Origin: a virus
Lineage: Duplodnaviria; Caudoviricetes
Virus record (IMG/VR): IMGVR_UViG_3300011338_000704
Coordinates: 1 to 46,979 of that record
Strand: one strand, 5' to 3'
DNA length: 46,979 bases
The position numbers and the translations under genes were made by a program. This document shows positions 6,901 to 43,191 of this stretch, one piece after another (the stretch's first letter is position 1; every line of letters starts with the position of its first letter). The notes under the pieces were generated by a model that saw only the letters and a list, made by a program, of their open reading frames with translations, was not told the origin of the DNA and did not search any database.

Positions 6901-9900
6901 GCGGCCTCCTCGGCGGCCAGCTCGGCCTCCTCCCGACTGTCATAGTCGGTGTCGTCGTAACGCTCCTCGCTGAAGGTCCGCAGGCTGTAGGTACCGTCGC
7001 CGTTGTCATAGACCTGGTCCGCGCCGTTGGTCGCGCCGCCGCCCAGCTCCAGCACCTCGACCGCCACGCCGTTGCTGTTCACGAACGCCAGCAGCGCCTC
7101 GCGCTCGACCGGCCCCTCGATCCCCGCCAGCCAGTCGAGCACCCCGCTCCACTCCAGCTCCTCCTTCTTGACGCCCGGCGTCTTCTGGAGCGTGGCGATC
7201 CACTGGGCGGCCGGGGCCTTCTTGGTCTGGGCCTGCTCGATGGCGCGGCCGAGCCCGCTGTAGAAGACGTCCTCCTGGTAGAAGGTGGTCTCGCCGTTGC
7301 CCTGGTAGTCGGCGGCCAGCCGCTCGAAGACCACGGCCACCATCTTCAGGTTGGCGTGGCGGCTCCAGTAGCCAGCGTACCCGGCGTCGGCGATCACGCG
7401 CTCATAGGCCGAGCCCCGCTCGGCGCGGGACCACTCGCCGCTCTCGACCAGCTCGACGACCTTGGCCTTCAGGCCATCGGGGTCGGCGTCGAAGTCATAC
7501 AGGCGGTCGGCCTCGATGCGGGCGGTGTAGCGGTGAGGGCCAAGGCCGTCCTCGCGCTCGTAGCCCCACGGCTGGCCGACGTCGACGCCGTAGTAGGTGC
7601 GGCGGGGCACGTCGTCGTTCTCGACGGCGTTGCGCTCCTCGCGGGTCAGGATCGTGGCGTTGTCGCCCCAGCGCCGGGGGTCCAGCGCCTTGAGGTTCTT
7701 GCGGCGGCCCCAGTGGGTGAGGGTTACCCGTCCGTCCGGTCCCGCGAGGGGCTCAATTCGCGTTGCATCAGGTGCAAGGCCTTGGCCTTCTCGAAGGCGA
7801 TTATACTCTCCGAGGAGCGCGGCCTCTTGCTCGCGGTAACGGCCTTCGCGGTCGGATCGCTCTTGGAGTTGGAAGACTTCACGAAGCACCCATTGCGGCG
7901 CGAGGAACGCCTTTTGATCGGAGAAGCGCCGGTCGGCCAGGCCAACATAGTCGCTGTCGCCCCGTTTCGGAAGGGTGCCGTCGGGACGGCGCAGGTGCTG
8001 GCCGTAGTTGACCCAGGCGTTTTGCATCAGGGTCTCGGCCGCCACGGCCGGGAGGGCCGCGTCAGAGAACATGCTCGCGTGCTCAAGGAAGGCGTTAAGC
8101 TCGCCCTTGGGGCCGAAGCCCGCGCCGCCCGTGGTGTGGGCGAAGACGTCATGCACGATGCGGAACAGGTCGTTGACCAGCAGGGGCGTCCCGTTGCTGT
8201 CGGTCAGCTCGGTCTCCCGCAGGAACGGGTGGTTCATGTCCTCCGGGTTTCCCGCGCCGAAGCTCTCGCGCTCGGTCGGCAGGAAGTAGAAATGGCCCCG
8301 CAGCAGGACGTCCTCGATCATCGCCGTGCTGTTCGGATAGGGCTCGCCCGTGCCGTTCCAGCGTTCCAGCACCAGGTGGCCGACGATGAAGTGGGCCTGC
8401 TCCTCGACCTCGCTGGCGGCGGCCTCATAGGAGGCGATCACCGCCGGGTCGGTGGGCTTGCTGATCTGCGCGTCGAACTCGTCGGCGAAGCGCATCATCA
8501 TGCCCTCGTCGGGCTCGACGGGGGCGAGGGGGGCTTCGCGCGTGCGTCCGAACTTGGCGCGGTAGGCATTGGCGAGGACGCGGGTGGTGGGGTTGGGGAG
8601 AGCGTCCAGGTAGCGGCCAGACAGGTCGGTCGGAGCCTTGACCACATGCCCCCGGCCACGCCTCACGTCGCGGGTCAGGTCGGGGAAGATGGCGCGGCGC
8701 GTTTCGCCGTCCATGTCCAATCGAGCTTCGGCGGTGTTGCGTGCCTCAATCTCCCCCTCGGAGCGGAAGTAGGTGTCGTAGACCGCCTCGCCCATCCCCT
8801 CGATCCGCTTGCGAGCTGCGGCCTGCTGGGCGGGCGGATAGGTCGCCACCATGTCGTTGATCGTGGCGTCGAGCGCCTCGGCGTAGCCCTGGCGGCGCAA
8901 CTCGGTCTCGTTGGGACCGGCCCCGCCAGCAAAACCCTCCAAGGCTTGGATGACGTGCTGCACCTCATGCAGGATCGTGGCGATGGGACCGTCGACCGTC
9001 TGCCGCTGGGACACGGCGATCTCGCCGGTCGAGGGATCGAACGCCCCAAGCGAGCCCTTGGGCATGGCCTCGGCCAGGATCGGAATGTTGCGGAGCTTGG
9101 GGTAGGCCGCGAACAGGGCTTCGTGCTCCATCACGTCGCCAAGGGTCAGGGGCGGCTCTTTGGCCAGGGCGATGCGCTCGTCGCTCGTCCGCAGGCGCGG
9201 GTTGGCGACGAGCTGCTGGCGCATGTCATCGCGGATGAAGCGATCCAGCGCGTCGGGCTTCATCACCGCCTGGCTGTCGTCGATCTCGAAGCGCCATTGC
9301 TGATCGGGGCCGCGTATCCAGCCGGTGTCCTTCCAGATTTGCTCGGGGCTGGCGTCCCGCTTCTCCAGGAGCTGGGCCACGCGCAGCTTGCCCATGTCGG
9401 CGGTCAGCGCCTTGCGGCCAGCGAACTGGTCGAAGGTCTCGCCGCCCGGTCCCATCTCGGGGGCCTGCGGGCCGTCGGGGATCGGGGTGTCGGCCGCGCC
9501 GGGACCGGCCACCATCTGCTCGCCGCCAGCAGCGGGCGCGTCCACGCCCTCGAAGGTGGCGAACAGGTTGGCCTTCACCTCGGCCACGGTGCGAGGGCGG
9601 CGGTCCTTGCCCTTGCCCTCGTAGAAGATGGTCGTGTTGGCGGCGGCGGCGGCCTTCAGCCCCTTCAGGTCGCGGGCGATGGCGTTGTCGTCGGCCTTCA
9701 GCAGGGTCTGCGCGCCGCCGTTGCCGAGGAAGTGGGCGGTGTAAAGCTCACCGGCCGACGGGTCACGGCCGAGCACGCCGCGCAGGAACTTGGCGTTGTC
9801 GGCGGTGAAGGCGCGGAAGGCGGCGGTGCTGTCGGCGGCGTTCGTGCGGCGGGCCAGCAGGGCGCGCTGGGCCTCGTTCACGATCAGCGGCCGACCGTCC

Positions 9901-12047: not shown

Positions 12048-12048
12048 G

Positions 12049-13839
12049 TCAGCGCGGCCCACCAGCGAGGCCGGTCGATCCTTTGCGCTTGCCAGCGTAC
12101 CGCTCGGCGAGGTTCTCCCCGCGCACATAGGCCGTGAAGGCCTCCTCGATCTCGCTGGGGGTCATGGTGATGAAGTCCTCGGCCATTGCCCGCTTGAAGT
12201 AGTCGGGAACGCGGCGGAAGGGCAAGGCCGGTTTGCCGTCGGCCATGTTGCCGACGATCTGGCTGGCCCATTCGCGGTCGGGCTTCACGTCGGCCTTCGG
12301 GTCGACCTTGCCGCCGGGCGGGGTCAGGGCCTTCAGCGCCCCGGCGTACAGGTCTCGGTCGCCCGCGTAGAGCTGGCCAGCGTCGGACAGGGCGAAGTAT
12401 TCCTCGCCCTCGCCCCGGCTGGTGATCCGCGCCACGATGGCCTTGATCTGGGCAGGGTTGGGCGGGGTCTTGTTGTCCTCGATCCAGGCGGCCACCTCGA
12501 CGGCGGCCATCGTGCGAACCTGCGCCTCCATCGCCGCCTTCTTCGGCCCCTTGCGCGCCTTGCCGTCGGCCATGATCTGGGCCGTAGCCAGGCTGGCGAT
12601 CTCGTTGACCGCGCCGACGTGAGACTTGCTCGCCAGCTCGGTGCCTTTGTCGAAGCGGTCGAGCAGCTTGATCCGGTCGTCGGGGCTGACCTTCAGGTCG
12701 ATAATGTCCTGGCGGTTGAGCCTGGCAAACTCCCTTGGGTCCATCGTCCGGTAGGCTTGGTAGACGGGGCTGTCGTTGGCGATAGGCGCACTCTCCCAGG
12801 CCACCAGCTCGTCGGTGAAGCCGTACTTGTCGGCGTCCAGCCTGTCCTCGGGGGTGAGCTGCTCGCGGCGGGCCATCTTGGCTTCCAGGCGGTTCTTGAC
12901 CTGCACCGCCTGGTTCTGGGCGTCCCGGCGGTAGATCGACACCCGGCGCTGGTACTGCTCACTGACCTGTTGCGCCAGCACGGGGTCTTTGATCTTGGCG
13001 ATCCCCGCCTCGACGTCCATCGTCTCCCCGCTGGTGACCCACAGGTCGAACAGTTGGTTACCCGCATCGCGCCCTTTGGCGAAGGTGTCCATCTTGGCGA
13101 AGTCAGACTTGGCGCTGGCGTAGTCGACCGGGTTGAAGTCCCGCTTGTTGGCTTCCAGGTAGGCCGCCGCGCCCTCGTAGTCCTGCCGGGCCTTGTATCC
13201 AGACAGGACGGTGTTGTGAACGCCGGTCATGCCGTCACGCACGAAGGCGGTTGCGGCCTCACTGTCAGGGCCGCCAAGGCCACGGCGCTTCGCCAGCCCC
13301 CACAGCTCGGAGCGGGCCGTCGCCACCCGGTAGCCGCGCTCGTTCTCGTCGGGCGACATGGCCGCCACTTGCGCGTCGGTGCTGACCTTCCCGAAGGCCA
13401 CGGCCTCGTCGTACTTGGTCCGCTCGTTCGTCTCGATCCGCGACAGCTCGCCGTTGACCTGTTGGCGTCGGGCCGCGAGCTGGTCGCGGATCATCTGCTG
13501 CTGGCGGCTGTTCTGCGCCGCCCCGGCCACCCGGCCATCGAGATCGTCGAACGCCTTGACCGTATCCGGCATGGCGTCGAGGTAGTCCTTGCCCTGCTTT
13601 CCGACGATGCCGGTCGGGCCGTACTTGAGCTGTAGCGCCTCTTGATCCCAGCTCGTCAGGGCCTCGCGCACGACCGTCTCGTCATGCTCGGCCAGCTTCT
13701 GCTCGGCGAACGCCCCGAGGTTGCCCGCGAGCTGCGCCACGGCGCGGGCCGGGGCGGTGTTGGCGGTGACCTCCTGCACGCCCAGAGGCTGCGTCTGGAC
13801 GCGGTTGGGCTGGTACTGAGGGATGACGGCGCGAGGCAC
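12049..13839 (-). CDS. Internal virion/ejection protein (gp15-like position)
   Basis: 596 aa, helical Ala/Gln-rich, N-terminal MPR..PQY; lies between the small ejection protein and the giant protein. Confidence 0.75.
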   Translation of the reverse strand: MPRAVIPQYQPNRVQTQPLGVQEVTANTAPARAVAQLAGNLGAFAEQKLAEHDETVVREALTSWDQEALQLKYGPTGIVGKQGKDYLDAMPDTVKAFDDLDGRVAGAAQNSRQQQMIRDQLAARRQQVNGELSRIETNERTKYDEAVAFGKVSTDAQVAAMSPDENERGYRVATARSELWGLAKRRGLGGPDSEAATAFVRDGMTGVHNTVLSGYKARQDYEGAAAYLEANKRDFNPVDYASAKSDFAKMDTFAKGRDAGNQLFDLWVTSGETMDVEAGIAKIKDPVLAQQVSEQYQRRVSIYRRDAQNQAVQVKNRLEAKMARREQLTPEDRLDADKYGFTDELVAWESAPIANDSPVYQAYRTMDPREFARLNRQDIIDLKVSPDDRIKLLDRFDKGTELASKSHVGAVNEIASLATAQIMADGKARKGPKKAAMEAQVRTMAAVEVAAWIEDNKTPPNPAQIKAIVARITSRGEGEEYFALSDAGQLYAGDRDLYAGALKALTPPGGKVDPKADVKPDREWASQIVGNMADGKPALPFRRVPDYFKRAMAEDFITMTPSEIEEAFTAYVRGENLAERYAGKRKGSTGLAGGPR

Positions 13840-27055: not shown

Positions 27056-27559
27056 CTATCTGGCGGGCGGGGTCAAGAGGGCCTCGGCGATCCCCACCAG
27101 CCGCCCGATCTCCGACAGCCGGTCGCGGTTGGATTGCCGCAGCTCGTCGATGGCAGCCCACAGCAGGCCAATGTCGCTGACCGGCCCACCCCTCGAATGT
27201 GTATCACTTGTGAGGTTTTCGGGCTGTTTGTCCTCATCCGACACCGAACCGTAGATCGGCTCGGCGCGGCCGGGGTTGGCGGTGATGGGCTTGGCCTTGG
27301 CGATCAGCTTGAGGCTATCCTTGTCCCAGATGCCACCAACACCGCCTTCCAGCACGAAGGGCCAGCGGGCGCTATGCGAGAGGCCCTCGACCTTGAACCG
27401 CTGGCCCAGGTACGGCTGGCCGGGCTTACCCACCACCTCTACCGTATCCCCCACCTCGATCACCCCATCCTTCAATTCCATAGCCTGTCCTTCCGTGTTT
27501 GGCCGATCCTGGCCGGTGATGATCCTGGCGAGCTTGTCGCCGATGTGGTTGGCGATCAC
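27056..27559 (-). CDS. Hypothetical protein (SH3/KOW-like segment)
   Basis: IEVGDTVEVVG motif; possible internal start MELKDG with GGAAGGAC SD. Confidence 0.55.
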   Translation of the reverse strand: MIANHIGDKLARIITGQDRPNTEGQAMELKDGVIEVGDTVEVVGKPGQPYLGQRFKVEGLSHSARWPFVLEGGVGGIWDKDSLKLIAKAKPITANPGRAEPIYGSVSDEDKQPENLTSDTHSRGGPVSDIGLLWAAIDELRQSNRDRLSEIGRLVGIAEALLTPPAR

Positions 27560-30083: not shown

Positions 30084-30409
30084 CCGTCCTTCAGCCGTGC
30101 CAGCCCCTTCGCCGTGATCCTCGTTCCCTGCCATCGTCCGTCCTCCTGCAATACCGTTTCAATCAAACCCTCGGCGAGTAGCTCGCGCCTACAGGTCAAG
30201 AACCATCTGTCCGTCTGGCCGCCCCTCATCCGCTCCAGCTCGGCCTCGACGCTTAGGCGCTGGACCGGCGGGGGCAGGCAGGGCTTGCCCTTCACGGGGG
30301 CCAGGGCGAGGCGGTTGGCGTCCAGGTGGGCCGCCAGCTCGTCGCGCAGCTCGGCGGGGGTCTTCGCCCGCATCGCCTTCCGCGCCTGCCTGTCGATCCA
30401 TGACGCCAC
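30080..30409 (-). CDS. Hypothetical protein
   Basis: 109 aa; C-terminal LLAEGLI...RITAKGLARL is wHTH-like. Confidence 0.55.
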   Translation of the reverse strand: MASWIDRQARKAMRAKTPAELRDELAAHLDANRLALAPVKGKPCLPPPVQRLSVEAELERMRGGQTDRWFLTCRRELLAEGLIETVLQEDGRWQGTRITAKGLARLKDG

Positions 30410-30733: not shown

Positions 30734-30936
30734 CAGGTGATCCCCGCCGCCGCCCACGCCGCGCGCTGCGCCTGCGTCTCGGCCCCCTCGCGGGCCAACT
30801 GCTCATCGACCAGCACGCGAACCTGCGCGGCGAGATCGCTGTCGAGCTGGTGGGCCTGAGCCCACAGGCCGCGAAGGTTTCGGATGCGCCAGTTGCGCTC
30901 TCGGGCCTCGGTCTGAGCTGGGGTCGGCTTGGTCAT
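30733..30936 (-). CDS. Hypothetical protein
   Basis: 67 aa, TGATG coupling. Confidence 0.6.
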   Translation of the reverse strand: MTKPTPAQTEARERNWRIRNLRGLWAQAHQLDSDLAAQVRVLVDEQLAREGAETQAQRAAWAAAGIT

Positions 30937-31253
30937 CAGCCCCTCGCCTTCGCCCGCTCACCGGCCGCGATCACCGCCTGCCGGGCCAGCTCGACGCTGG
31001 CTCTGTGGTTGGCCAGGGCCTCGCGCCCCTTGGCTGTGATCCGGTAGCGCCACGCCGGGCGCGTCTGGCCGAAGCCGGTGTTGCGACGCTCGACCCAGCC
31101 GAACGGCAGCATCTTCGCCAGGGTCGTGGTGTGGTGGCTGTTGCCGCCGCCGCCAATGTCGAGGGGCCGCGACCAGTCTTCGCTGCCGTCGAGGGCAGCG
31201 TTGAGGGAGCGGATGGCCAGCTCGCGCAGGGTCTCGGCTTGGATGCGGGTCAT
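30936..31253 (-). CDS. Winged-helix DNA-binding-like protein
   Basis: TLAKMLPFGWVERR...YRITAKGREAL; RBS GGAAGGACGAACC. Confidence 0.65.
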   Translation of the reverse strand: MTRIQAETLRELAIRSLNAALDGSEDWSRPLDIGGGGNSHHTTTLAKMLPFGWVERRNTGFGQTRPAWRYRITAKGREALANHRASVELARQAVIAAGERAKARG

Positions 31254-31301
31254 TCGGTTCGTCCTTCCGATCAACGACTACATGGCGCAGGCGGCGTTGA
31301 T

Positions 31302-31634
31302 TTACAACAGCCGATATTGTCCGCTGTCGTCGTATCCCACGTCCTTCGCAGGAAGCGGCACACGCCATTTTATGGCCCGGCGGCCACCACGGGCCACGCC
31401 GGTCTCTCCGCTGTCCTCCAGCAGGCCCACGGCGGCCAGCTCGCTGCACCTGGCGCGACAGGTCTGGTCGAAGATGCCGGTGGCTCTGGCGATCTCCTCG
31501 GGCGTCACCGGGCCGTGGTCTCGGACGTAGGCCAGCACCTGCGCCTTCAGGGTGCCGACCTTGGGCTCGATGGCCTCGGCGGCGGCGATGCCGGTGTGGC
31601 GGCCCTTGTGGCCGGGGGTGTGGGGGTAGGTCAT
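31302..31634 (-). CDS. Winged helix-turn-helix protein
   Basis: VLAYVRDHGPVTPEEIARATG...RARCSELAAVGLLEDSG...GRRAIKW. Confidence 0.75.
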   Translation of the reverse strand: MTYPHTPGHKGRHTGIAAAEAIEPKVGTLKAQVLAYVRDHGPVTPEEIARATGIFDQTCRARCSELAAVGLLEDSGETGVARGGRRAIKWRVPLPAKDVGYDDSGQYRLL

Positions 31635-31855
31635 CGCTTCAGCCACTCCCGCAGGGTCTTCCCCTCGCGGGCGGCCAGGATCGCGCCCACGGCCAGGATC
31701 ACGAACGCCACGGGGTAGACCACCGGCCACGCGGCGAGGATCGCCAGGGTGCGCCACGGGTGGCGCTCCAGCTTGCCCCGCTCGTTGGGGTCGGCCTGCA
31801 CCACGAACAGCAGCCAGGCAAAGATGCCCAGCCACACAGTCAGCCATCCGATCAT
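31631..31855 (-). CDS. Small membrane protein (2 TM segments)
   Basis: Two hydrophobic stretches; ATGA overlaps. Confidence 0.68.
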   Translation of the reverse strand: MIGWLTVWLGIFAWLLFVVQADPNERGKLERHPWRTLAILAAWPVVYPVAFVILAVGAILAAREGKTLREWLKR

Positions 31856-32424
31856 TTCTTCTCGTCCTTCCGCACGGCGTCCGTCAGCAGACGCGCAAAT
31901 TCCTCGTCGACCTTGTGCTCGACCACCTCGTTGAGCAGGCGAAGATGCTTCGCCAGCAGGGTCAGGGCTCCGAGCTTGTCGTGCGACCTGACCTTGACCC
32001 GCCGCACCTCGCGGGCGTCGTCGCCCCGGCCAGCGGTGAAGTCCTCGATCTCGGCGCTCGACAGCGCGGCGAGCTGGTCGGGGGTGGCTTTCGACAGGTC
32101 GATGTAGGGGTCGCCCTGCTCGGTGACGTGCAGCATGTCGCCGAGGCTGAAGCGGGCGATCTTGGCGGCCTCGATCAGCACTTCGTCGGCGGTCATCTTC
32201 AGCCGCTCCGACTGGGCCTTGCGCCCCTCATTGATGGCGGCGCGGACGTTCTCGTACTCGGGCTCACAGAAGAACCGGCTGGCCTGGCGGTTGGCGCGGT
32301 TCTCGGCGTAACCAGCGGCGCGGGCAGCGCGGGCTCCGTTGGTCGAGACCAGGTACTCCTCGACAAAACGCTTCTGGCGCTCGGTCAGGGGGCGGTCGAC
32401 GTAGGGGACGGCGGGCTTGCTCAT
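31852..32424 (-). CDS. terS: Terminase small subunit
   Basis: LTERQKRFVEEYL..NGARAARAAGY and HDKLGALTLLAKHL motifs. Confidence 0.92.
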   Translation of the reverse strand: MSKPAVPYVDRPLTERQKRFVEEYLVSTNGARAARAAGYAENRANRQASRFFCEPEYENVRAAINEGRKAQSERLKMTADEVLIEAAKIARFSLGDMLHVTEQGDPYIDLSKATPDQLAALSSAEIEDFTAGRGDDAREVRRVKVRSHDKLGALTLLAKHLRLLNEVVEHKVDEEFARLLTDAVRKDEKK

Positions 32425-32594
32425 GCCCGCATCCTATCACACTCGTCGGCGTAGCCTTCCCGCCAGCCGTGCTCCCACTCCAGGTTCTCGGGCGAGCCTT
32501 CGGGGTGGGGGTTGTGGCGGCTTGGGCGACGCTTCCGCATGGCGTCGGACCCGGCGGCGTGGCCGTCGAGGAAGGGGTCGCGCTCGCCGGTCAT
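32421..32594 (-). CDS. Rmf/CrpP-like small protein, 57 aa (not in ORF track)
   Basis: FLDGHAAG...NPHPEGSPENLEWEHGWREG matches the G..A...(C/N)PY.....W..GW..G pattern; ATGA overlaps at both ends. Confidence 0.65.
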   Translation of the reverse strand: MTGERDPFLDGHAAGSDAMRKRRPSRHNPHPEGSPENLEWEHGWREGYADECDRMRA

Positions 32595-33132: not shown

Positions 33133-33174
33133 CCCGGTGGGTGGCCCGCCGTAGCAGGCCACCGGCCGGGGGCT
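33133..33174 (-). promoter_or_regulatory. Structured RNA hairpin, copy A (after the DUF932 gene)
   Basis: CCCGG-2x2 loop-GGTGGCC-TGC-TACG-GCG-GGCCACC-CCGGG. Confidence 0.7.
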
Positions 33175-34096
33175 AGGCGGCCTTCAGTTTCGCCATCTCG
33201 TTGGCCAGGGTGAACAGGGCGCGGTTGAGCCCGGCGTTCTGGTCGATGTTCCGCACCTCGCCGGTCGTGCGGCGCTCGCGCTTGATAAGGCGGCCGGTCT
33301 CCTGGTCGCGGGTCTCGCGGACGTAGCGGTCACCGCCCCGGATCAGGTGTTCCTGCGTCCGCTGGAACACGCGCCACAGGTCGGCCCCGTTGTCTTCGTG
33401 GCGCTTCACCCGCAGAAGGTCAGACGGCTGGATCGGGGCCTCCTCGGGCTTCCAGCGGAGATCGCGGGCGGCGGTGGCGAAGGCGAGCTGCTCGCGGGTC
33501 GACAGCTCGATGCCGGTCATGTTGGAGCTGACGTCGACCATCCGCTCGGTCTCACGGACCACGCGGAAGGCCCCCTCGATCACATCGTCGCCGATGTTGC
33601 CCTTGTGCGGCAGACGCACCTCGCTGAACAGGTCGTCGGCGAAGACGCAGCCGTTGAGGCAGGCGAACTTGAAGCTCCCGGCCATGAACTTGTAGGCGCT
33701 GGTCCCGTCGTGGCTGTTCCACATCAGCACCTCGGGGGCGATGCCGAGACGCTCGACGCCCTTGACCTTCAGCGCGTCGGGGTGGCGCAGGCGCAGGGCG
33801 TGCTTGGTGAAGTCGCGCTTGCCCTCGATCCGCGAGCCGCCTTGCGTCACCTCGACGATCTGGAAGCCCTGGCGGATCAGGCCGCCGATGACCGGGCGGC
33901 TGTCGATGAAGGCATACTTGGCCGAGCGGCTTTCGTGCGCGCCGTCGGCGAAGACGCTGGGGGCGAGCTGGGCGAGCTGCTCGATGCTGATGGCCTGACC
34001 CTCACGGGCGCGGAACCGGACGGCTCCAGATGGGGCGCGGTAGCCGTAGCCGTGGCTGATGGGCTCGGCGAAGGGGGCGGGGGTCATGGCGTTCAT
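33173..34096 (-). CDS. DUF932 family protein
   Basis: APSVFA..AHESRSAKY, FTKHALRLR, NSHDGTSAY, GSFKFACLNG and EDNGADLW motifs. Confidence 0.9.
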   Translation of the reverse strand: MNAMTPAPFAEPISHGYGYRAPSGAVRFRAREGQAISIEQLAQLAPSVFADGAHESRSAKYAFIDSRPVIGGLIRQGFQIVEVTQGGSRIEGKRDFTKHALRLRHPDALKVKGVERLGIAPEVLMWNSHDGTSAYKFMAGSFKFACLNGCVFADDLFSEVRLPHKGNIGDDVIEGAFRVVRETERMVDVSSNMTGIELSTREQLAFATAARDLRWKPEEAPIQPSDLLRVKRHEDNGADLWRVFQRTQEHLIRGGDRYVRETRDQETGRLIKRERRTTGEVRNIDQNAGLNRALFTLANEMAKLKAA

Positions 34097-34125
34097 GGTG
34101 GTGTCCTTCCAGGTCGGGCAAAGCG

Positions 34126-34435: not shown

Positions 34436-34488
34436 GGTGGCGTCCTTCCAAGGGGTTGATCGGGCCGGGTCGCCCCGGCCGTGATGAC

Positions 34489-35087: not shown

Positions 35088-35808
35088 CGGTTCGTCCTTC
35101 AGGGATGGTCAGTGGCCGCTCGCGGTCGGCCTTCGATTGCGCCACGGCTTCGGTGAAGTAGCCCCAGCTCTGGATTTTGCCGCCGCGTTTCTTGGTGGCC
35201 ATGCTCACGATGGTCGGGACCACGTCGAGCCCCCAGGCGCAACCGGCCTGACGCCACCGCCCGATCTCATGCACGCCGCTGGCGATCTTGCTGGCCTCGG
35301 ACATTCCCGACAGCTTCGATCCGGCCAGCGACAGCAGCAGCTTGGCGTGGTCGAAACTGTCTCCATCCGGCCAGTTGTCATGCGCGTGCGCTACATCAGC
35401 ATCTTCCTTATGTGACTGTGACTGTGAAGGTATGGCGTTTTGTTTCTCGTTTGCTGCCGGTTTGCTGGAGTTTTGTTGCCGCCTTGCTGCGCTTGAGCGC
35501 CCCGCCTCGCGCCTGGCCTCGGTGATGTTGTTGGCCCGCGCCAGCTCCTCGCTCAGGCGGGCGTTGTGCAGGCGACCGTCGCGCTCCTCGAAGAACGGCA
35601 GGATGCGCGGGGCCATCACCAGCCAGCGGTCGAGCGGCAGGCGCACGGTCGCGGCGAGGTCTTCCTCGTCAGCCGTGATCGAGCCGCCCTCGGCCCAGCA
35701 GGCCATAAGCAGCAGCAGATAGGCCCCGTGCTGCTCGGTCGTCAGGCGCATGGTCTTGCGGAGGTAGTCGCCGACGTAGAGCGGGAGCCATGTGTTTGCC
35801 TTGCTCAT
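34987..35808 (-). CDS. DUF1376 (YdaU-like) replication initiator
   Basis: WLPLYVGDYLRKTMRLTTEQHGAYLLLLMACW and NARLSEEL...RREAGRSSA motifs. Confidence 0.85.
   Translation of the reverse strand: MSKANTWLPLYVGDYLRKTMRLTTEQHGAYLLLLMACWAEGGSITADEEDLAATVRLPLDRWLVMAPRILPFFEERDGRLHNARLSEELARANNITEARREAGRSSAARRQQNSSKPAANEKQNAIPSQSQSHKEDADVAHAHDNWPDGDSFDHAKLLLSLAGSKLSGMSEASKIASGVHEIGRWRQAGCAWGLDVVPTIVSMATKKRGGKIQSWGYFTEAVAQSKADRERPLTIPEGRTDDQPASPNLDRRHANLGRALAGADRALARRRQE
35410..35480. other. Putative replication origin (iteron-like, AT-richer tract within the initiator gene)
   Basis: Repeats of CAGCAAAC (x2) and AACAAAAC (x2) on the minus strand, plus TGTGA x3; same placement as the lambda O ori. 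Confidence 0.5.
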
Positions 35809-36382: not shown

Positions 36383-36626
36383 GGTATCGGTCCTTCCAAA
36401 GTTGCTCGCCAGCCGCCCGGTGCTTGGGGCAGAAGGCCGTCCGGTCCTGGTCGTGGGGCAGGTGCCCCGGTGGTGCGAAGATGAAACAGGCGTGCGCGCC
36501 GCAGGGCAAGCCGCCGGGTTCCTTGTGGACGCAGCGGTAGCCCCCGTGGCGCTGGCCGGTGGCGATGACCGGCGGGATCATGCCGGGGGGTATCTCGCCG
36601 TAGGCGGTGTCGTTGAGGCGGGTCAC
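36273..36626 (-). CDS. Putative zinc-binding protein
   Basis: C...CGAHACF...FCPKHR; ends QGSLFD; GTGA coupling. Confidence 0.6.
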   Translation of the reverse strand: MTRLNDTAYGEIPPGMIPPVIATGQRHGGYRCVHKEPGGLPCGAHACFIFAPPGHLPHDQDRTAFCPKHRAAGEQLWKDRYHAKRRPTLDVEGPQGMGRQAAPKGKARDEGQGSLFD

Positions 36627-37078
36627 AGCCGGATCAGGCCCCACCAACGGAGGGCGGTGTAGGCCTCCTCGACCGAACGGCAGACGGCCATGTCGCCATT
36701 GAGGGCCTCATGCAAAGAGGCCTGCTCGTCGGTCAGGACGCCCTTCGCTGACTTCAGCTCAATGAAGTAGACCTTCGGGATCAGTGGCGGCTTCAGCGGC
36801 ACAATCACGATATCCGGCAGGCCCGGCCGCAGGCCCTGCTCTTGCGCCCGGCCGCGCTCCCGCGCCGTCTTCAGCCGCACGCCGTTGAGGGTCGACGACC
36901 ACCAAATGCCGTGTGGCGTCAGCAGCTCGTCGAGGAGCTGGGCGACCAGCTTCTGAAGGTCGGCCTCGGGCTGGGCGTTGCGCCGCTTCGGCTTGGCGAT
37001 CATGTCGCCGTGGCCCGCCGCCCGCAGCTTGGCGGCGAGGGCGGGGTTGAGGGCGATCTTCGAGGGGGGCCAGGCCAT
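36623..37078 (-). CDS. VRR-NUC (PD-(D/E)XK) nuclease
   Basis: EADLQ, GLRPGLPD and FIELKSAKGVLTDEQ motifs. Confidence 0.85.
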   Translation of the reverse strand: MAWPPSKIALNPALAAKLRAAGHGDMIAKPKRRNAQPEADLQKLVAQLLDELLTPHGIWWSSTLNGVRLKTARERGRAQEQGLRPGLPDIVIVPLKPPLIPKVYFIELKSAKGVLTDEQASLHEALNGDMAVCRSVEEAYTALRWWGLIRL

Positions 37079-37716
37079 CAGCGGAGCGCGTCGAGCTGTT
37101 TCTTGAGCGCCGCGATCATGCCGGTGATCCGCTCCAGCTCGCTGTAGGCGCTGGCCTCCAGCTCGTTGAGTTTCACCTCGACCTCGTCGAGCTGCTGGTT
37201 GCGCTGGGCCTGCGCCTCATTGGCCTCGGGGCCGAACAGGCTTTCCCGCAGCTCGGTCACCCACGCGCGAGGAACATTCAGGCGCTCGGCCAGAGACTTG
37301 TCGGTGGTGGAGCCGCTGTAACGCTGCTGGCTGACCAGATAGACGATCTCCAGCTCCTCCATGATCTTCCGCCGCTCGGGGATCGTGGGCTGGCGCGGCG
37401 GCTCGGGCGACGGAACGACCGTCAGCGGAGGGGTGGCGGGCTTCGTCATGGGTTCGTCCTTCTGGGGTTTCTGGCGGCTCTTGGCCACGCAGCGGGGGCA
37501 CTCATCCTTGCCGAGGGCTCGGCCGATACGCCAGCCCTTCTCGCGGAACTTCCCGGCGACCACGTCGGTCGGCAGGACGCGGGTGGTGTTGTCGGTGATC
37601 CAGTCGCCCCGGCCGCAGCCGCAGGCGATCAGGCGCACGCGGCGCACGGCTGGCGGCTCGCCACGGTGACCTACGGGGAAGCGGTCTTGCTCAAGGGCTC
37701 GGGGGTGGCGGCTCAT
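37078..37716 (-). CDS. Zn-finger plus HTH/coiled-coil protein (possible internal start at 37449)
   Basis: CGCG...CPRC; TDKSLAERLNVPRAWVTELRE; C-terminal coiled coil. Confidence 0.68.
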   Translation of the reverse strand: MSRHPRALEQDRFPVGHRGEPPAVRRVRLIACGCGRGDWITDNTTRVLPTDVVAGKFREKGWRIGRALGKDECPRCVAKSRQKPQKDEPMTKPATPPLTVVPSPEPPRQPTIPERRKIMEELEIVYLVSQQRYSGSTTDKSLAERLNVPRAWVTELRESLFGPEANEAQAQRNQQLDEVEVKLNELEASAYSELERITGMIAALKKQLDALR

Positions 37717-37913
37717 GTGCGAAGCCTCGCAGGCAGGGCGTTCCAGGCGGCCACGTCGGCCTCGGCCTGCTCGTCTTCGCCGTCGAGGATCACGCGGGCG
37801 CGCTCGGGGCCGTGAGACCACGCCAGACGGCGGGCGAGGCCCTGGTCGCGCAGGATGATGGCGCGCTCCCTGTGGGTCAGGAAGCTGCTGGAGAATGTGA
37901 GGCGGTGACCCAT
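37713..37913 (-). CDS. Hypothetical protein, first gene of the leftward operon
   Basis: 66 aa, ATGA coupling downstream, no clear SD. Confidence 0.55.
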   Translation of the reverse strand: MGHRLTFSSSFLTHRERAIILRDQGLARRLAWSHGPERARVILDGEDEQAEADVAAWNALPARLRT

Positions 37914-37920
37914 CGGCTTA

Positions 37921-37979
37921 GGGGCGGCGCGCGGCGGAAGGACGAACAACCGGACCCCGGAGGGCGAGCGCGCCGCCCC
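37921..37979 (-). ncRNA. Candidate antisense regulatory RNA (leader hairpin with anti-RBS loop)
   Basis: 12-bp stem GGGGCGGCGCGC/GCGCGCCGCCCC enclosing GUUCGUCCUUCCG, complementary to several RBSs. Confidence 0.55.
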
Positions 37980-38054
37980 CGTTAGCCAGGACGGCGAAGC
38001 ATGGTTTAGCCGCTCGATTTGGTGTGGGCAAGTCGTCCTCCATCGGTGAGCCCC

Positions 38055-38124
38055 AGAGATAGCGCGGCCTTGTGCGGAGTACAAGTCTTGTCATGTTGAC
38101 GGAACCATTGGGACGCCCTAGATA
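38055..38124. promoter_or_regulatory. Back-to-back divergent promoters with a palindrome
   Basis: Plus strand: TTGACG-17 bp-TAGATA. Minus strand: TTGTAC...GCTATCTC (Caulobacter housekeeping-like). ACAAG-T-CTTGT palindrome between them. Confidence 0.65.
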
Positions 38125-38159
38125 GGGGTCACGGCGCACCGCCGCAGAAGGACGACACC

Positions 38160-38960
38160 ATGACCCAAGACACCACGCTGGACGATGCCGCCCGGCACTC
38201 CATCGGCGCGAACACCCCGCCCGAGCCCATCGACGTGAAGACCCGCCTGGCGGTCAGCCACCACGCCCTGATCCAGAGCGCGGCCGAGCTGGCGACCAAG
38301 GCCCAGGCCATCGGGACCATCGGCCTCAACGACAGCGCCGCCCTCGAAGACGCGATCAAGCTGGTCAAGGATATCCGCGCCAAGGATGGCGAAGTCGACG
38401 CCACCCGCAAGGCCGAGAAGAAGCCGCTCGACGAGCAGATTGCGGCGGTGCAGGAGTTCTTCACCCCGGCCCAGCGGTCCCTCGCCTCGGCCAAGTCCAT
38501 CGCCGAGCGGGCGATCAACGACCGGAACAACCGCGCCGCCGCCGCCGAGCAGCAGCGCCTGCGGGACGCGGCTGAAGCCGCCCGCGCCGCCTCCCTGGCC
38601 CGCATCGACCAGGCCGACAGCTACGACAAGGAGGGCTCCAGCGCCGTCACCGATGCGCTGGTCGATGATGCCCAGCAGAAGGAGGCCGCCGCCGCCCACA
38701 TGGACAAGCTGGCGACCGGCCCCGCGCAGAACCTGAACCGCGCCGCGACCGCCGCCGGTACGGTGTCCAGCTCGCTGCAATGGGCCTTCGAGATCGCCGA
38801 CGATGACGCCCTGCGCGCCACCCTCGGCGCGCTCGGCCCGTTCTTCACCCCGGCCGATCTGGAGAAGGCCGTGCGCGCCTACATGAAGTCGACCAAGGCG
38901 GCCCCCAAGCCGCTGGCTGGCGTCGTGTTCTCGCAAGTCTCGAAGGTGAACATTCGATGA
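38160..38960 (+). CDS. Coiled-coil protein of the recombination operon (Gp157/Gam-like position)
   Basis: VDATRKAEKKPL...VQEFF motif, long helical region; upstream of RecE/RecT. Confidence 0.7.
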   Translation: MTQDTTLDDAARHSIGANTPPEPIDVKTRLAVSHHALIQSAAELATKAQAIGTIGLNDSAALEDAIKLVKDIRAKDGEVDATRKAEKKPLDEQIAAVQEFFTPAQRSLASAKSIAERAINDRNNRAAAAEQQRLRDAAEAARAASLARIDQADSYDKEGSSAVTDALVDDAQQKEAAAAHMDKLATGPAQNLNRAATAAGTVSSSLQWAFEIADDDALRATLGALGPFFTPADLEKAVRAYMKSTKAAPKPLAGVVFSQVSKVNIR

Positions 38961-39328
38961 GCGACACCGCGATCCTACAGACCATCCCGGCCGACGACCC
39001 ACTCATCGCCACGGTTCGGGCGGCCTTCGATGCGTGGCGGGCTGACAGCCTCGCCGCCCTCCCCAACCAGGACGAGGGCAACGCCAACGCCAACGCCGCG
39101 ATCAACGTCGCCCACAACGTGGTGATCCTGCTGGCCGGAATGGAGCAGCAGGCCGGGCGACCCGACAACGAGGCGGCGGCAACCTGCCTCGCCCACGTCA
39201 TCGCCAACACCTTCAGCCATGCCCACTGTGTGGCCTGCTTCATCGAGACCCTTCAGGGCATTGCCCGCGAGGCGCTCGGCGTGTGGATGCAGGATCACCC
39301 GGCCTCGACCGGGGAGACGGCGCATTGA
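38957..39328 (+). CDS. Hypothetical protein
   Basis: 123 aa, HCVAC, ATGA coupling. Confidence 0.65.
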   Translation: MSDTAILQTIPADDPLIATVRAAFDAWRADSLAALPNQDEGNANANAAINVAHNVVILLAGMEQQAGRPDNEAAATCLAHVIANTFSHAHCVACFIETLQGIAREALGVWMQDHPASTGETAH

Positions 39329-40458
39329 TCCCCGACGGCATATACTTCGGCCTCGACGAGGAGGCCTACCACGCCGACGAGGCGCTCGGCTCGTCGGACC
39401 ACAAGGCGCTGGTGGTCAGCCCTGTCCAGTGGCGAGCGGCGAAGGCCGTCTCGCTCATGGACGCCCTCGGCCTCGGCCCCTCCACGGCCCCGGCCAAGGA
39501 GCAGGAGGTGACCGCGACCAAGGCGGTGGGCAAGGCCTTCGGGGATGCTGTCGACCTGATGGTGCTGACGCCAGACCTGTTCGACCAGCGGTACGTCGAA
39601 GACCCGGAGTGCCCGCCCGAGTACCTGAGCACCATCGACGACATACGGGCGGCGCTGAAGGAGCTGGGGGTCTCGATCTCCCTGCCCCGCTCGGCGAAGC
39701 TCTATGACCATGAGGTGCTGGCCTCCTCCCACGGCCTGAAGACGTCGGCCGACTGGGCGGCGGCCAGGGCCGAGCTGGTCGGCGGGCGTCAGGTGCTGTC
39801 GCGGCGGTGGCTGCACACCCTGCGCTTCATCGACCGGATGCTGGACATGGGCCGTGCCGACTACGGCGGGCGCTCGATCCGCGAGGCGGTGCTGGGGCAG
39901 GGTGTGGCCCAGGTCTCGGTCTTCTGGACCGACGACAACGGCGTGCGGTGCAAGTGCCGCTTCGACTGGCTGCGGCCGGGCCACGCGCAGGACGTCAAGA
40001 CGTTCTTCGCCCGCGAGGGTGACGAGATCGTCGAGGCGTTCTGGAGCGCGGTGGCGCGGTTCGCTTACGACATGCAGGCCGCCCACTACCTCGAAGGCCA
40101 CGCGGCCATTCGGGGCCACTGGGAGAACGGCCGGGTGTTCGGCGACCACGACCCGGCCTTCCTGACCGCCGTGGTGCAGGCGGGCACGCCGACGTGGTCG
40201 TGGATCGGGATACAGACGCGCGGCCTCCCCGAGGCTGACGTGTTCCAGCTCCCGGTCACCGCCCATAGCCTGGTGCTGTCACAGGCCCAGACGCAGATTG
40301 CCGAGGCCCGCAAAGCCTACCTCGAATACGTCGACCGCTTCGGGCTGGATCAGCCTTGGGTGTCGACCCGTGGCCCCATCGTCATGAGCGACGAGACGGC
40401 CGTTAACTTCCTGCGCCGCATGGGCGAGCGCGGGGCCAAACGCTGGAGCGACGAATGA
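39325..40458 (+). CDS. RecE/exonuclease VIII-like PD-(D/E)XK nuclease (DUF3799-like)
   Basis: GIYFGLDEEAYHAD..LGSS, CKCRFDWL, DVKT and YDMQAAHY motifs; TTG start coupled to the upstream stop. Confidence 0.85.
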   Translation: MIPDGIYFGLDEEAYHADEALGSSDHKALVVSPVQWRAAKAVSLMDALGLGPSTAPAKEQEVTATKAVGKAFGDAVDLMVLTPDLFDQRYVEDPECPPEYLSTIDDIRAALKELGVSISLPRSAKLYDHEVLASSHGLKTSADWAAARAELVGGRQVLSRRWLHTLRFIDRMLDMGRADYGGRSIREAVLGQGVAQVSVFWTDDNGVRCKCRFDWLRPGHAQDVKTFFAREGDEIVEAFWSAVARFAYDMQAAHYLEGHAAIRGHWENGRVFGDHDPAFLTAVVQAGTPTWSWIGIQTRGLPEADVFQLPVTAHSLVLSQAQTQIAEARKAYLEYVDRFGLDQPWVSTRGPIVMSDETAVNFLRRMGERGAKRWSDE

Positions 40459-41522
40459 CCGACGAGACCATGACGGCGGAAGCCGAGGCCCCGCACGAAA
40501 CCGTGCAGGCCATGACCATCGTTGACACGGTGGCCGAGGCGCGGCGCAGCGCGGCGCTCGCCCTGATCCCCCTGCCCATCGCCGAGATGGAGGAGATCGC
40601 CCACTTCATGTCGAAGGCGCGCTCGATGGTGCCGCAGCACTTCATCGGCCAGCCTGACGCCTGCCTCGCGGTGGTCTACCAGGCGGCGCGCTGGGGCATG
40701 GACCCCTTCGCCGTGGCCCAGAAGGCCTACATCGCCAAGCAGGGCGGGACCATCGGCTATGAGGCCCAGCTCGTCCACAGCCTGGTGGAGAGCAGCGGGC
40801 GGCTGCAAGAGCCCCTGCGCCTGCGCTATGAGGGCGACGCCCTCCAGCGCCGGATCGTGGTGATCGGCCGGGTGCGCGGGGCAATCGAGGATCAGGTCTA
40901 CGCCTCGCCCCGGATCGTCAACATCAGGCCGCGCAACAGCCCGCTGTGGACGTCCGACCCTGACCAGCAGCTCGCCTACTACGGCGTGCGGGCGTGGGCT
41001 CGGCGGTTCTCGCCGTCCGTCCTGCTGGGGGTCTACACCCCCGAGGAGCTGTCGTTCAACGACATGCTGAACGTCACCCCCAAGGAGGCGGCGAAGGCCT
41101 ATGAGGTGGCCGATCTGCCCGCGCCCAGCGGCGGGGCGGCCTACACTAACAAGGCCCCCGATGCCGTCCAGCAGAAGGGCGAGCAGCGCGGCGGGATGCA
41201 GGAACAGCCGCCGAAGTCACCGCCCCCGCCGCCCGCACCGAAGCCGAAGCCCGCCGAGCCCAACCCGTGGGCGAAGGTCGAGAGCCTCGAGGAATGGTAC
41301 GCCGACTACATGAGCCAGCTTGAAGTCGTCGACAGCCTTCAGGCGCTGGAGCGGCTCGGCCAGCAGGCCCTGCAACACGGCTGGTTCCACAAGCTCGGGC
41401 AGGCCGAGGGCAAGGACGGGCCGATGAAGAAAACCCTGGCCGAGCTGGGCAAGGCGCGGAAGCATGAGCTGTCGGTGAAGGAGGCGGCCGAGGCTGCGCT
41501 GAAGGAGCGGGGCGAGGGCTGA
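40455..41522 (+). CDS. recT: RecT-family single-strand annealing protein
   Basis: QAARWGMDPFAVAQK, GYEAQL, RNSPLW..DPDQQLAY and LLGVYTPEEL motifs. Confidence 0.9.
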   Translation: MTDETMTAEAEAPHETVQAMTIVDTVAEARRSAALALIPLPIAEMEEIAHFMSKARSMVPQHFIGQPDACLAVVYQAARWGMDPFAVAQKAYIAKQGGTIGYEAQLVHSLVESSGRLQEPLRLRYEGDALQRRIVVIGRVRGAIEDQVYASPRIVNIRPRNSPLWTSDPDQQLAYYGVRAWARRFSPSVLLGVYTPEELSFNDMLNVTPKEAAKAYEVADLPAPSGGAAYTNKAPDAVQQKGEQRGGMQEQPPKSPPPPPAPKPKPAEPNPWAKVESLEEWYADYMSQLEVVDSLQALERLGQQALQHGWFHKLGQAEGKDGPMKKTLAELGKARKHELSVKEAAEAALKERGEG

Positions 41523-41524
41523 CG

Positions 41525-41557
41525 AAAAAGGCCCCGCCAGCGCAAGCCAGCGGGGCC
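41525..41557 (-). terminator. Terminator between the convergent recombination and lysis operons
   Basis: GGCCCCGC...GCGGGGCC stem followed by TTTTT on the minus strand. Confidence 0.75.
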
Positions 41558-42767: not shown

Positions 42768-42801
42768 CAGCTCAGGACGGCACGACAGGACGAAGCAAGC
42801 C

Positions 42802-43191
42802 ATGACCACCAAAGCCACCAAGACCGATGCCCGTGGGCGGGTCCAGCCCCTGTTTAAGCTGGTCTGCAAGGAGTGCAACACCACGTTCAGCGGCAACGCC
42901 CGCGCCGTGTTCTGCACCCCCGGCCACAAGCGGGCCTTCCACCAGCGGAACCAGAAACGCGGCCAGTGCGCGATGCCCCTTCTGCTGGCGTGGCGCGGTG
43001 GCCGTGGCCAGAAGGAGACCAGCCGCTGGGCCTACGGCGAGCTGTGCCGCCTCGCGGACCTCTGGAACGCCGAAGACAAGGCGGCCGGTCGCGCACCGCA
43101 GGCGGCCTATGCGGAGCTGAAGCGCCGGGACTTTTGGACGGCGGCTGACTACTACGACCGGGGCGAGCGCCGCGCTAATCCGGCTTCCTGA
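42802..43191 (+). CDS. Zinc-finger protein inserted antisense in the lysis cassette
   Basis: CKEC...FCTPGH; own promoter and AGGA SD. Confidence 0.75.
   Translation: MTTKATKTDARGRVQPLFKLVCKECNTTFSGNARAVFCTPGHKRAFHQRNQKRGQCAMPLLLAWRGGRGQKETSRWAYGELCRLADLWNAEDKAAGRAPQAAYAELKRRDFWTAADYYDRGERRANPAS

Follow-up and report, generated by a model that had tools for sequence, protein, structure and literature searches.

Between the two divergent early operons of an uncultured phage lies a short leader hairpin whose loop is complementary to the ribosome-binding sites (RBS) of several genes of the same genome. The original prediction regarded it as a multi-target antisense switch controlling early genes or immunity in a phage without a repressor gene. 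This raises the questions whether the complementarity exceeds chance, whether it recurs in other phages, and whether it is better explained by a small RNA or by something else.

Genome layout and leader hairpin

The window analysed here (46,979 nt) is a complete circular phage genome with a terminal overlap of 127 nt and a G+C content of about 68 %; DNA near-identical to it is contained in river and other freshwater metagenomes. The genome harbours a BPP-1-like head and tail module (GP7 capsid, Bbp16 and head-tail connector), a leftward early operon extending from 37913 to about 27056, and a rightward early operon (38160 to 41522) that is closed by RecE- and RecT-like genes. The genes downstream of the hairpin include one for a DUF1376 replication initiator. 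The host is probably a member of the Caulobacteraceae, because the first two leftward genes have homologs in lambdoid prophage regions of this family; the protein of gene 38160 was not found in the 401 family genomes searched. Tyrosine integrase (PF00589), HTH_3 (PF01381) and S24 peptidase (PF00717) were detected by six-frame searches neither in the window nor in a second phage, G404 (see below), with positive controls matched in 14, 14 and 9 of 14 genomes. A scan of 69 window ORFs gave no match to a recombinase or partition family. The proposed lack of a repressor gene accordingly holds for the CI/Cro type (no PF01381, PF00717), but two winged-helix ORFs (30936-31253 and 31302-31634) reside within the early operon.

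Neither 37713-37913 nor 37078-37716 matched an icd, Ash, antirepressor or kil family. The latter gene, encoding 212 aa, contains an in-frame internal start (37449), and its homologs in Caulobacteraceae prophages likewise display Met and SD-like codons near this position, such that the family may make two products. These homologs led to lambdoid Caulobacteraceae prophages without the element. Apart from the leader region, the genome contains a very long ORF (927-12128; 3733 aa from the first ATG) with LPD23, DUF7178 and DUF6782 domains, representing a large polyvalent protein. The gene of the terminase small subunit (31852-32424) belongs to the early operon and is separated from that of the large subunit by about 5 kb, and a 57-aa ORF (32421-32594) has a weak match, below the curated cut-off, to ribosome modulation factor (PF04957). 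A lone rightward gene with a tagged RBS within the lysis region (42802-43191) is homologous to gp028c of Caulobacter phage W2.

The 12-bp G+C outer stem of the leader element was confirmed: the predicted fold of the 59 nt has a free energy of -37.9 kcal/mol (z -3.2), and none of 200 shuffled sequences was as stable. The inner hairpin originally drawn inside this stem (CCGG-GGU-CCGG) has a pair probability of only 0.02 and is replaced by GCCC-UCCG-GGGU (Table 1), whose tetraloop belongs to the UNCG type known for extra stability. Opening the 8-10-nt core of the anti-RBS strand is predicted to cost 1.0-1.9 kcal/mol. If the transcript starts at the putative leftward promoter, the hairpin is situated about 70 nt into the leader. 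An E. coli-type sigma-70 scan called neither of the two early promoters read by eye; changes listed for relatives in the putative rightward promoter all fall into the spacer, with none in the hexamers. Two overlapping 11-bp palindromes at 38081-38091 (ACAAG-N-CTTGT) and 38090-38100 (GTCA-NNN-TGAC) cover both putative -35 boxes, with no change listed in relatives; they are possible operators for a winged-helix protein, one of these proteins having the best RNA target site. Boxes of the LexA type have the motif GTTC-N7-GTTC; none was found near the putative promoters.

A partial site, GGAGGACGA, had been proposed further upstream in the leader and is indeed present at 38033-38041. It can form 9 bp with the loop, including one G-U pair, and in predicted folds of truncated transcripts it holds the loop until the 3' arm of the stem appears, the final leader fold being only 6.6 kcal/mol better than the one with the 5' site on the loop. 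A possible 41-codon leader ORF remains open through the hairpin and could be coupled to gene 37913, which lacks an SD sequence; non-SD and leaderless starts are reported to be common in Caulobacter (PMC4117421). A terminator scan detected no terminator 3' of the leader hairpin, nor was a processing site recognisable. The terminator-like hairpin at 41525-41557 suggests the early promoter, and not late read-through, as source of the leader RNA, and such a source would imply negative feedback rather than late shut-off. The plus strand of the element also folds (z -2.4) and carries several GGA motifs. No promoter for a plus-strand version of the hairpin was seen and, as originally noted, no start codon follows the plus-strand copy of the loop.

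Table 1 Elements of the leader region and loop-complementary tags at gene starts (window coordinates)
Feature	Position	Strand	Remarks
Putative leftward early promoter, TTGTAC-17-TATCTC	38056-38084	-	Read by eye; start would be near 38049
Putative rightward early promoter, TTGACG-17-TAGATA	38096-38124	+	Read by eye
5' leader site GGAGGACGA	38033-38041	-	Predicted pairing with loop in nascent transcript before 3' stem arm is made
Possible leader ORF, 41 codons	37918-38043	-	Open through hairpin; ends 4 nt before ATG 37913; no family match
Structured leader RNA, 59 nt	37921-37979	-	12-bp G+C outer stem (37979-37968 with 37932-37921) closing inner hairpin and anti-RBS strand
Predicted stem extension, 1 + 4 bp	37914-37988	-	Ends adjoining ATG 37913; z -3.4
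Inner hairpin GCCC-UCCG-GGGU	37954-37965	-	UNCG-type tetraloop; pair probability 0.70-0.79; G-U to G-C in a relative
Anti-RBS strand GGUUGUUCGUCCUUCCGCC	37933-37951	-	Predicted to be mostly unpaired; 16 nt identical in phage G404
First early gene	37713-37913	-	66 aa; lacks an SD; Caulobacteraceae carry the family in prophage-like early operons, too
Tag, 11 nt	37452-37462	-	Before internal ATG 37449 of 212-aa gene 37078-37716
Tag, 8 nt	36390-36397	-	Before ATG 36382 (110 aa)
Tag, 11 nt	35090-35100	-	Before ATG 35087, gene after DUF1376 initiator
Tag, 9 nt	34441-34449	-	Before ATG 34435 (88 aa)
Tag, 8 nt	34103-34110	-	Before ATG 34096 (DUF932)
Tag, 12 nt	31862-31873	-	Before ATG 31855; hydrophobic protein of 74 aa, with coupling to winged-helix gene 31302-31634
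Tag, 13 nt	31257-31269	-	Before ATG 31253 (HTH, weak PadR-like match)
Tag, 8 nt	30085-30092	-	Before GTG 30083; doubtful as a target (short spacing, weak net energy)
Tag, 9 nt	27487-27495	-	Before ATG 27481
Tag, 9 nt	38147-38155	+	Before ATG 38160, head of rightward operon
Tag, 8 nt	42787-42794	+	Before ATG 42802 (129 aa, phrog_20494), lone rightward gene in lysis region
Terminator-like hairpin with U-run	41525-41557	-	At end of late operon

Complementarity between the loop and early gene starts

The sequence complementary to the loop is an extended ribosome-binding tag, (G)GAAGGAC(GAAC). All loop matches listed in the original prediction (13, 12, 11, 11 and 8-9 nt) were recovered in place, and two further ones were added (30085-30092, minus strand, and 42787-42794, plus strand). 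The gene at ATG 35087 is predicted to be helicase-loader-like (score 0.89), an assignment that serves as a lead only. The sequence said to be shared by three targets does reach past the SD core, but the last C of GAAGGACGAACC is out of register with the loop and can pair with it only across a 2-3-nt bulge.

In a curated set of 34 early and 26 late starts of the window, perfect loop complements of at least 8 nt occur in 11 early and no late start regions (Fisher p=0.0014). Those of at least 11 nt are found at 4 of the 34 early starts, compared with none of 139 control starts (late, Jess A and W2). After accounting for accessibility costs on both sides, net pairing energies of -8 kcal/mol or lower were obtained for 7/34 early versus 1/26 late starts; the endolysin start 42724 scores -8.9. 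When all 93,926 17-nt segments of the genome were scored against the start regions, the loop ranked first (score 43). Reverse complements of its own targets came next, scoring 37 or less, and the next non-overlapping, unrelated segment scored 29. An automatic pipeline again placed the loop first with a score of 30, no score above 20 being reached in 91 other loci; many of these are near-duplicates, and 23 have a G+C content of at least 60 %. The best scores in other phages were 19 (W2), 15 (Jess A) and 22 (Donnerlittchen); Donnerlittchen has no tag, and AGGAC-type RBSs are common in Caulobacter phage W2.

The matches also exceed what the AAGGA core shared by SD sequences would lead one to expect: GAAGGAC continues as GAAC at three of nine phage sites, as opposed to 1 of the 150 sites listed (out of 163) in three Caulobacteraceae genomes (p=0.0005). 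In 301 Caulobacteraceae genomes, of which G028 is unpublished, the full tag was matched 41 times, compared with three times in the 47-kb window, and none of the 301 contains more than two. A conserved host target was considered and rejected: a full tag precedes a CarD-like gene, named by eye, in one Caulobacter MAG and is missing in two other genomes. The RBS of this gene (G001, L106:3474-3486) provides a 12-nt loop complement in that MAG only.

Null genomes of the same 5-mer make-up (Markov), in which only segments with GTCCT were scored at every second start, equalled the loop score in 2 of 400 cases, their best score averaging 32.7. The complementarity alone thus corresponds to a p of about 0.005 and is not astronomically rare, and with two null genomes as good, the case rests on complementarity together with position, fold and recurrence.

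Relatives and recurrence in other phages

Relatives were obtained from public runs. In one of them, X19, 8 of 182 nt differ over 37885-38066, versus 25 of 138 nt downstream; four of the eight differences are listed, those near the ends being omitted, and the element lies more than 35 nt from both ends. Three listed changes fall within the 59-nt element and none within the core 37934-37951. They convert C-G to U-G, G-U to G-C, and an unpaired C to an A opposite U, yielding a new U-A pair, and all three are compatible with the minus-strand fold; on the plus strand, two G-U pairs, one of the reference and one of X19, correspond to A-C mismatches. No change within the element was found in X14 and X15. 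The first rightward gene is a different one in X17 and an inserted one in X19, the tag being kept in both, with a 12-nt complement in X17. This pattern represents conservation, not covariation, and none of the relatives examined combined an altered loop with a correspondingly altered tag.

Searches of viral contigs revealed no close relative by protein, and the loop-plus-stem pattern was found there at no locus in one scan and at three unrelated loci in another. Neither the leader nor the G404 unit described below had a DNA match among cultured phages, and a metagenome scan yielded one weak locus among the matches listed. Searches with RecT (80 loci) and capsid (9 loci) retrieved distant phages only, which were used as controls.

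A scan of viral contigs for a 15-mer of the loop yielded 24 loci, 23 of which were dropped as each has at most one AAGGACGA start. The remaining locus (L131 of record G404; 46.7 kb, 57 % G+C), thus one out of 24 and selected for its identical loop, has seven tagged starts in 11 kb. The siphophage G404 encodes a DNA polymerase and a lambda-type terminase and portal; its gene set is of the lytic type. On its early strand AAGGACGAA occurs eight times, each at a called early start, and once in reverse; AAGGACG is present at 11 of 35 called early-arm starts compared to none of 24 others. The reverse copy closely follows TATAAT, is succeeded by an 11-bp terminator with U-run, and forms a stand-alone unit of about 90 nt (L137:1365-1460), in which promoter and terminator fix the RNA strand as antisense. 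Alignment of this unit with the window element is limited to the 16-nt loop, and the predicted duplexes in both phages comprise 9-13 bp plus 2-3 bp across a small bulge. The margin over the next segment is small in G404 (29 versus 25), and its core is less accessible (3.5 kcal/mol opening cost). Rfam gave nothing for the unit at gathering score, with terminator-like matches below it. The sole protein match between the two phages is a weak DUF932-like one (E 4e-6; L137:7342-8229 versus window 33173-34096), and this gene stands behind a tag-like RBS in both.

A similar arrangement of repeated RBSs is formed by the start-associated sequences (SAS) of cluster K mycobacteriophages, which are 13-bp extended, asymmetric RBSs at non-structural genes; a single reverse copy is reported for four K1 phages, and the role of SAS was left open between RNA and protein (PMC3203893). 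In 2024 this role was still called 'ill-defined' (PMC11373665), and the accessible text of both papers does not propose an antisense RNA for SAS. Adephagia contains 16 sense SAS and one reverse copy at 58682-58694 (L141:29682-29694), between genes 92 and 93. The reverse SAS is predicted to lie in the loop of a hairpin (-33.7 kcal/mol, z -5.7), ten bases of this loop remaining entirely unpaired. The top-scoring segment of Adephagia (125) was discarded as the reverse complement of one of the sense SAS, the start of which is annotated at another place; the true reverse site ranks next (63). In the last 7.8 kb of TM4 and the last 8.1 kb of Pixie, five and seven sense SAS were found, with neither a reverse core nor CTCCT on the transcribed strand of these right ends.

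The window tag resembles SAS in being an asymmetric extended RBS at non-structural starts (11/34 early, 0/26 late), nearly always in one sense, and in being rare in host-like genomes (41 full tags in 301). The two differ in sequence, (G)GAAGGAC(GAAC) as opposed to the cluster K consensus GGGATAGGAGCCC, and SAS are more tightly conserved and belong to temperate phages of actinobacterial hosts. Moreover, the reverse copy of Adephagia is located near the right genome end, whereas that of the window is part of an early leader.

Known RNA regulators, alternative explanations and proposed mechanism

No Rfam match was obtained in the window at gathering score, nor any at E<=10 over 37600-38300; a further search of the window with the C4 model (RF01695) likewise gave none, as did its control genomes. 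The c4 and CI RNAs form a cloverleaf with two separate seed loops and are freed from their precursor by RNase P. The element shares with c4 (P1/P7, RF01695) and CI (P4, seqA/seqB/seqC) that a structured RNA is encoded in sense in an early-operon leader, with complementary sites upstream (38033-38041) and downstream (37452-37462 and others) in the same transcript. In contrast, it has one outer stem, one tetraloop hairpin and a single pairing strand, and about ten targets over 16 kb in two operons instead of two sites in one; lysogeny genes were not found, while replication genes (DUF1376) do follow. c4 is reported to block an RBS (PMC12197685). In P4, seqA is reported to pair with CI RNA, which the pairing of GGAGGACGA with the loop in truncated transcripts resembles (PMC4825925). 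The comparison with c4 and CI drawn originally is thus retained in the sense of 'works like' only, given the lack of an Rfam match, of a cloverleaf and of icd, kil or antirepressor genes, and given about ten targets on two divergent operons.

In IsrK of Gifsy-1, a leader RNA with alternative folds overlaps a small ORF coupled to the next gene (PMC4825925). Leader RNA, small ORF and alternative folds are likewise predicted here; however, IsrK activates one target in its own transcript and the window loop covers the SD core of many genes, without an Rfam match and with no terminator after the hairpin. The C/U-rich anti-SD loop is also reminiscent of the alphaproteobacterial cuckoo/CcsR RNAs and the UCCC loops of RNAIII, where such loops are predicted to occlude RBSs (PMC4615179). 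Cuckoo RNAs are bacterial and carry two to four hairpins, each with CCUCCUCCC, whereas the window has a single strand (UUGUUCGUCCUUCCGCC) and its loop, UUGUUCGUCCUUCC, is tailored to a tag private to the phage. SviR of the Vibrio PLE satellite is a trans-acting sRNA lowering translation of several phage targets (bioRxiv 10.1101/2022.04.08.487710); it acts from a satellite on its helper phage, and a shared RBS tag is not mentioned for it in the accessible part of this source. The element is not a member of c4, CI, IsrK or cuckoo, and it resembles, by analogy, c4/CI in origin and anti-SD sRNAs in pairing. The literature searched, which covered a minority of subscription papers, contains no description of an antisense RNA by which a phage targets an RBS tag shared by its early genes.

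Only early starts carry the tag, no other segment of the genome complements it as well as the loop, and the fold on the minus strand leaves this complementary strand accessible. Among the explanations for these observations, an RNA acting in trans as a feedback repressor is favoured here. The same antisense RNA could instead have immunity as its main job, maintaining a carrier or pseudolysogenic state and blocking superinfecting phages with the same tag. This would agree with the location of the element at the cI/cro position of lambdoid prophages with the same neighbouring genes, with an action that would extend to both early operons, with the existence of immunity of this kind in P4 (CI) and P1 (c4) (PMC4825925, PMC12197685), and with the temperate lifestyle of Adephagia. 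It is unlikely in view of the absence of PF00589, PF01381 and PF00717 from the window and G404, of any recombinase or partition family among the 69 ORFs scanned, and of more than two full tags in any of the 301 Caulobacteraceae genomes; moreover, the gene set of G404, with its DNA polymerase, is of the lytic type. The immunity part of the original prediction is, in the lysogenic sense, not supported, because neither a tyrosine integrase nor a CI-type repressor was found in either phage. Quite unlikely, in turn, is a leader switch acting in cis only, in which the loop pairs just with GGAGGACGA or controls the 41-codon ORF and gene 37913, the distant tags having other causes. The predicted folding of the 5' site onto the loop in truncated transcripts, the small difference of 6.6 kcal/mol and the end of the leader ORF 4 nt before ATG 37913 would suit such a switch, and IsrK/orf45/anrP is reported to have this kind of coupling (PMC4825925), but distant starts match the loop better (11-13 nt) than the 5' site does (9 bp with one G-U), and G404 has the same loop in a stand-alone, terminator-closed unit.

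Two explanations without an antisense RNA are both judged highly improbable. Binding or cutting of tag-like sites by proteins is exemplified by T4 RegA/RegB and CsrA, and the hairpin might be a plus-strand decoy carrying the tag, or incidental. The plus-strand fold (z -2.4) with its GGA motifs, the tagged DUF932-like gene common to both phages and the alternative of RNA or protein left for SAS (PMC3203893) are compatible with a protein site; against it stand the two G-U pairs of the reference and X19, which become A-C mismatches on the plus strand, the lack of a visible plus-strand promoter, and the promoter and terminator that fix the antisense strand in G404. A favoured RBS might also have been spread by cassette recombination, with the reverse copy residing in a G+C-rich hairpin by chance and no regulation at all. 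Such spreading would fit the frequent use of AGGAC-type RBSs in phage W2, the persistence of tags at swapped genes, as expected of recombination points, and a mean best score of 32.7 in null genomes. It is opposed by the p of about 0.005, obtained before a non-coding, same-strand and unpaired position is demanded, by the low scores of W2, Jess A and Donnerlittchen (19, 15 and 22), by the higher conservation of the hairpin region in X19 compared with the following gene (8/182 versus 25/138 nt), and by the recurrence of the design in G404 and Adephagia.

Feedback repression of early-gene translation in trans by a leader-derived antisense RNA is thus considered reasonably probable, with one small RNA likely turning down the whole early gene set. 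Apart from immunity in the lysogenic sense, the multi-target silencer envisaged originally gains support from the statistics, from three changes in X19 that agree with the structure and from the recurrence in G404 and Adephagia. Upon infection, the divergent early promoters would fire, and in the nascent leader the 5' GGAGGACGA site would hold the loop first, until the G+C stem forms and frees it. Since no terminator follows the hairpin, the RNA would either be cut out of the leader or function within it; host nucleases may trim the leader to a stem-protected RNA of 60-75 nt. This RNA would accumulate, and pairing of its exposed strand with the tag is predicted at about ten early genes, with 8-13 bp forming over the AAGGA core and often 2-3 bp more across a small bulge, which would shut ribosomes out. 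Pairing over this core would exclude the 16S tail, which makes repression likelier than activation; the topology of a closed loop may set a limit to pairing over more than one helical turn. As the tagged genes 31855, 31253 and 38160 appear to head translationally coupled blocks, repression could spread. The net effect would be a negative feedback that times or damps early functions, replication and recombination among them, and the RNA would thereby do part of the job of Cro in lambdoid prophages with these genes.

Beyond this phage, we hold it possible, at somewhat less than an even chance, that many unrelated phages run a tag/anti-tag early regulon composed of a private extended RBS and one hairpin RNA without a repressor protein, of which the window phage, G404 and cluster K1 would be three independent instances and SAS the target half. 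If true, this would represent a protein-free, regulon-wide switch in phages devoid of a classical repressor, co-regulating many genes compactly by one RNA of 60-90 nt. The search for a single reverse copy of a repeated RBS would then become a rule for phage genome annotation. It would also offer a testable answer to the question, open since 2011, of the function of cluster K SAS; since the window phage is uncultured and Adephagia grows on M. smegmatis, the idea could be tested in a cultured system.
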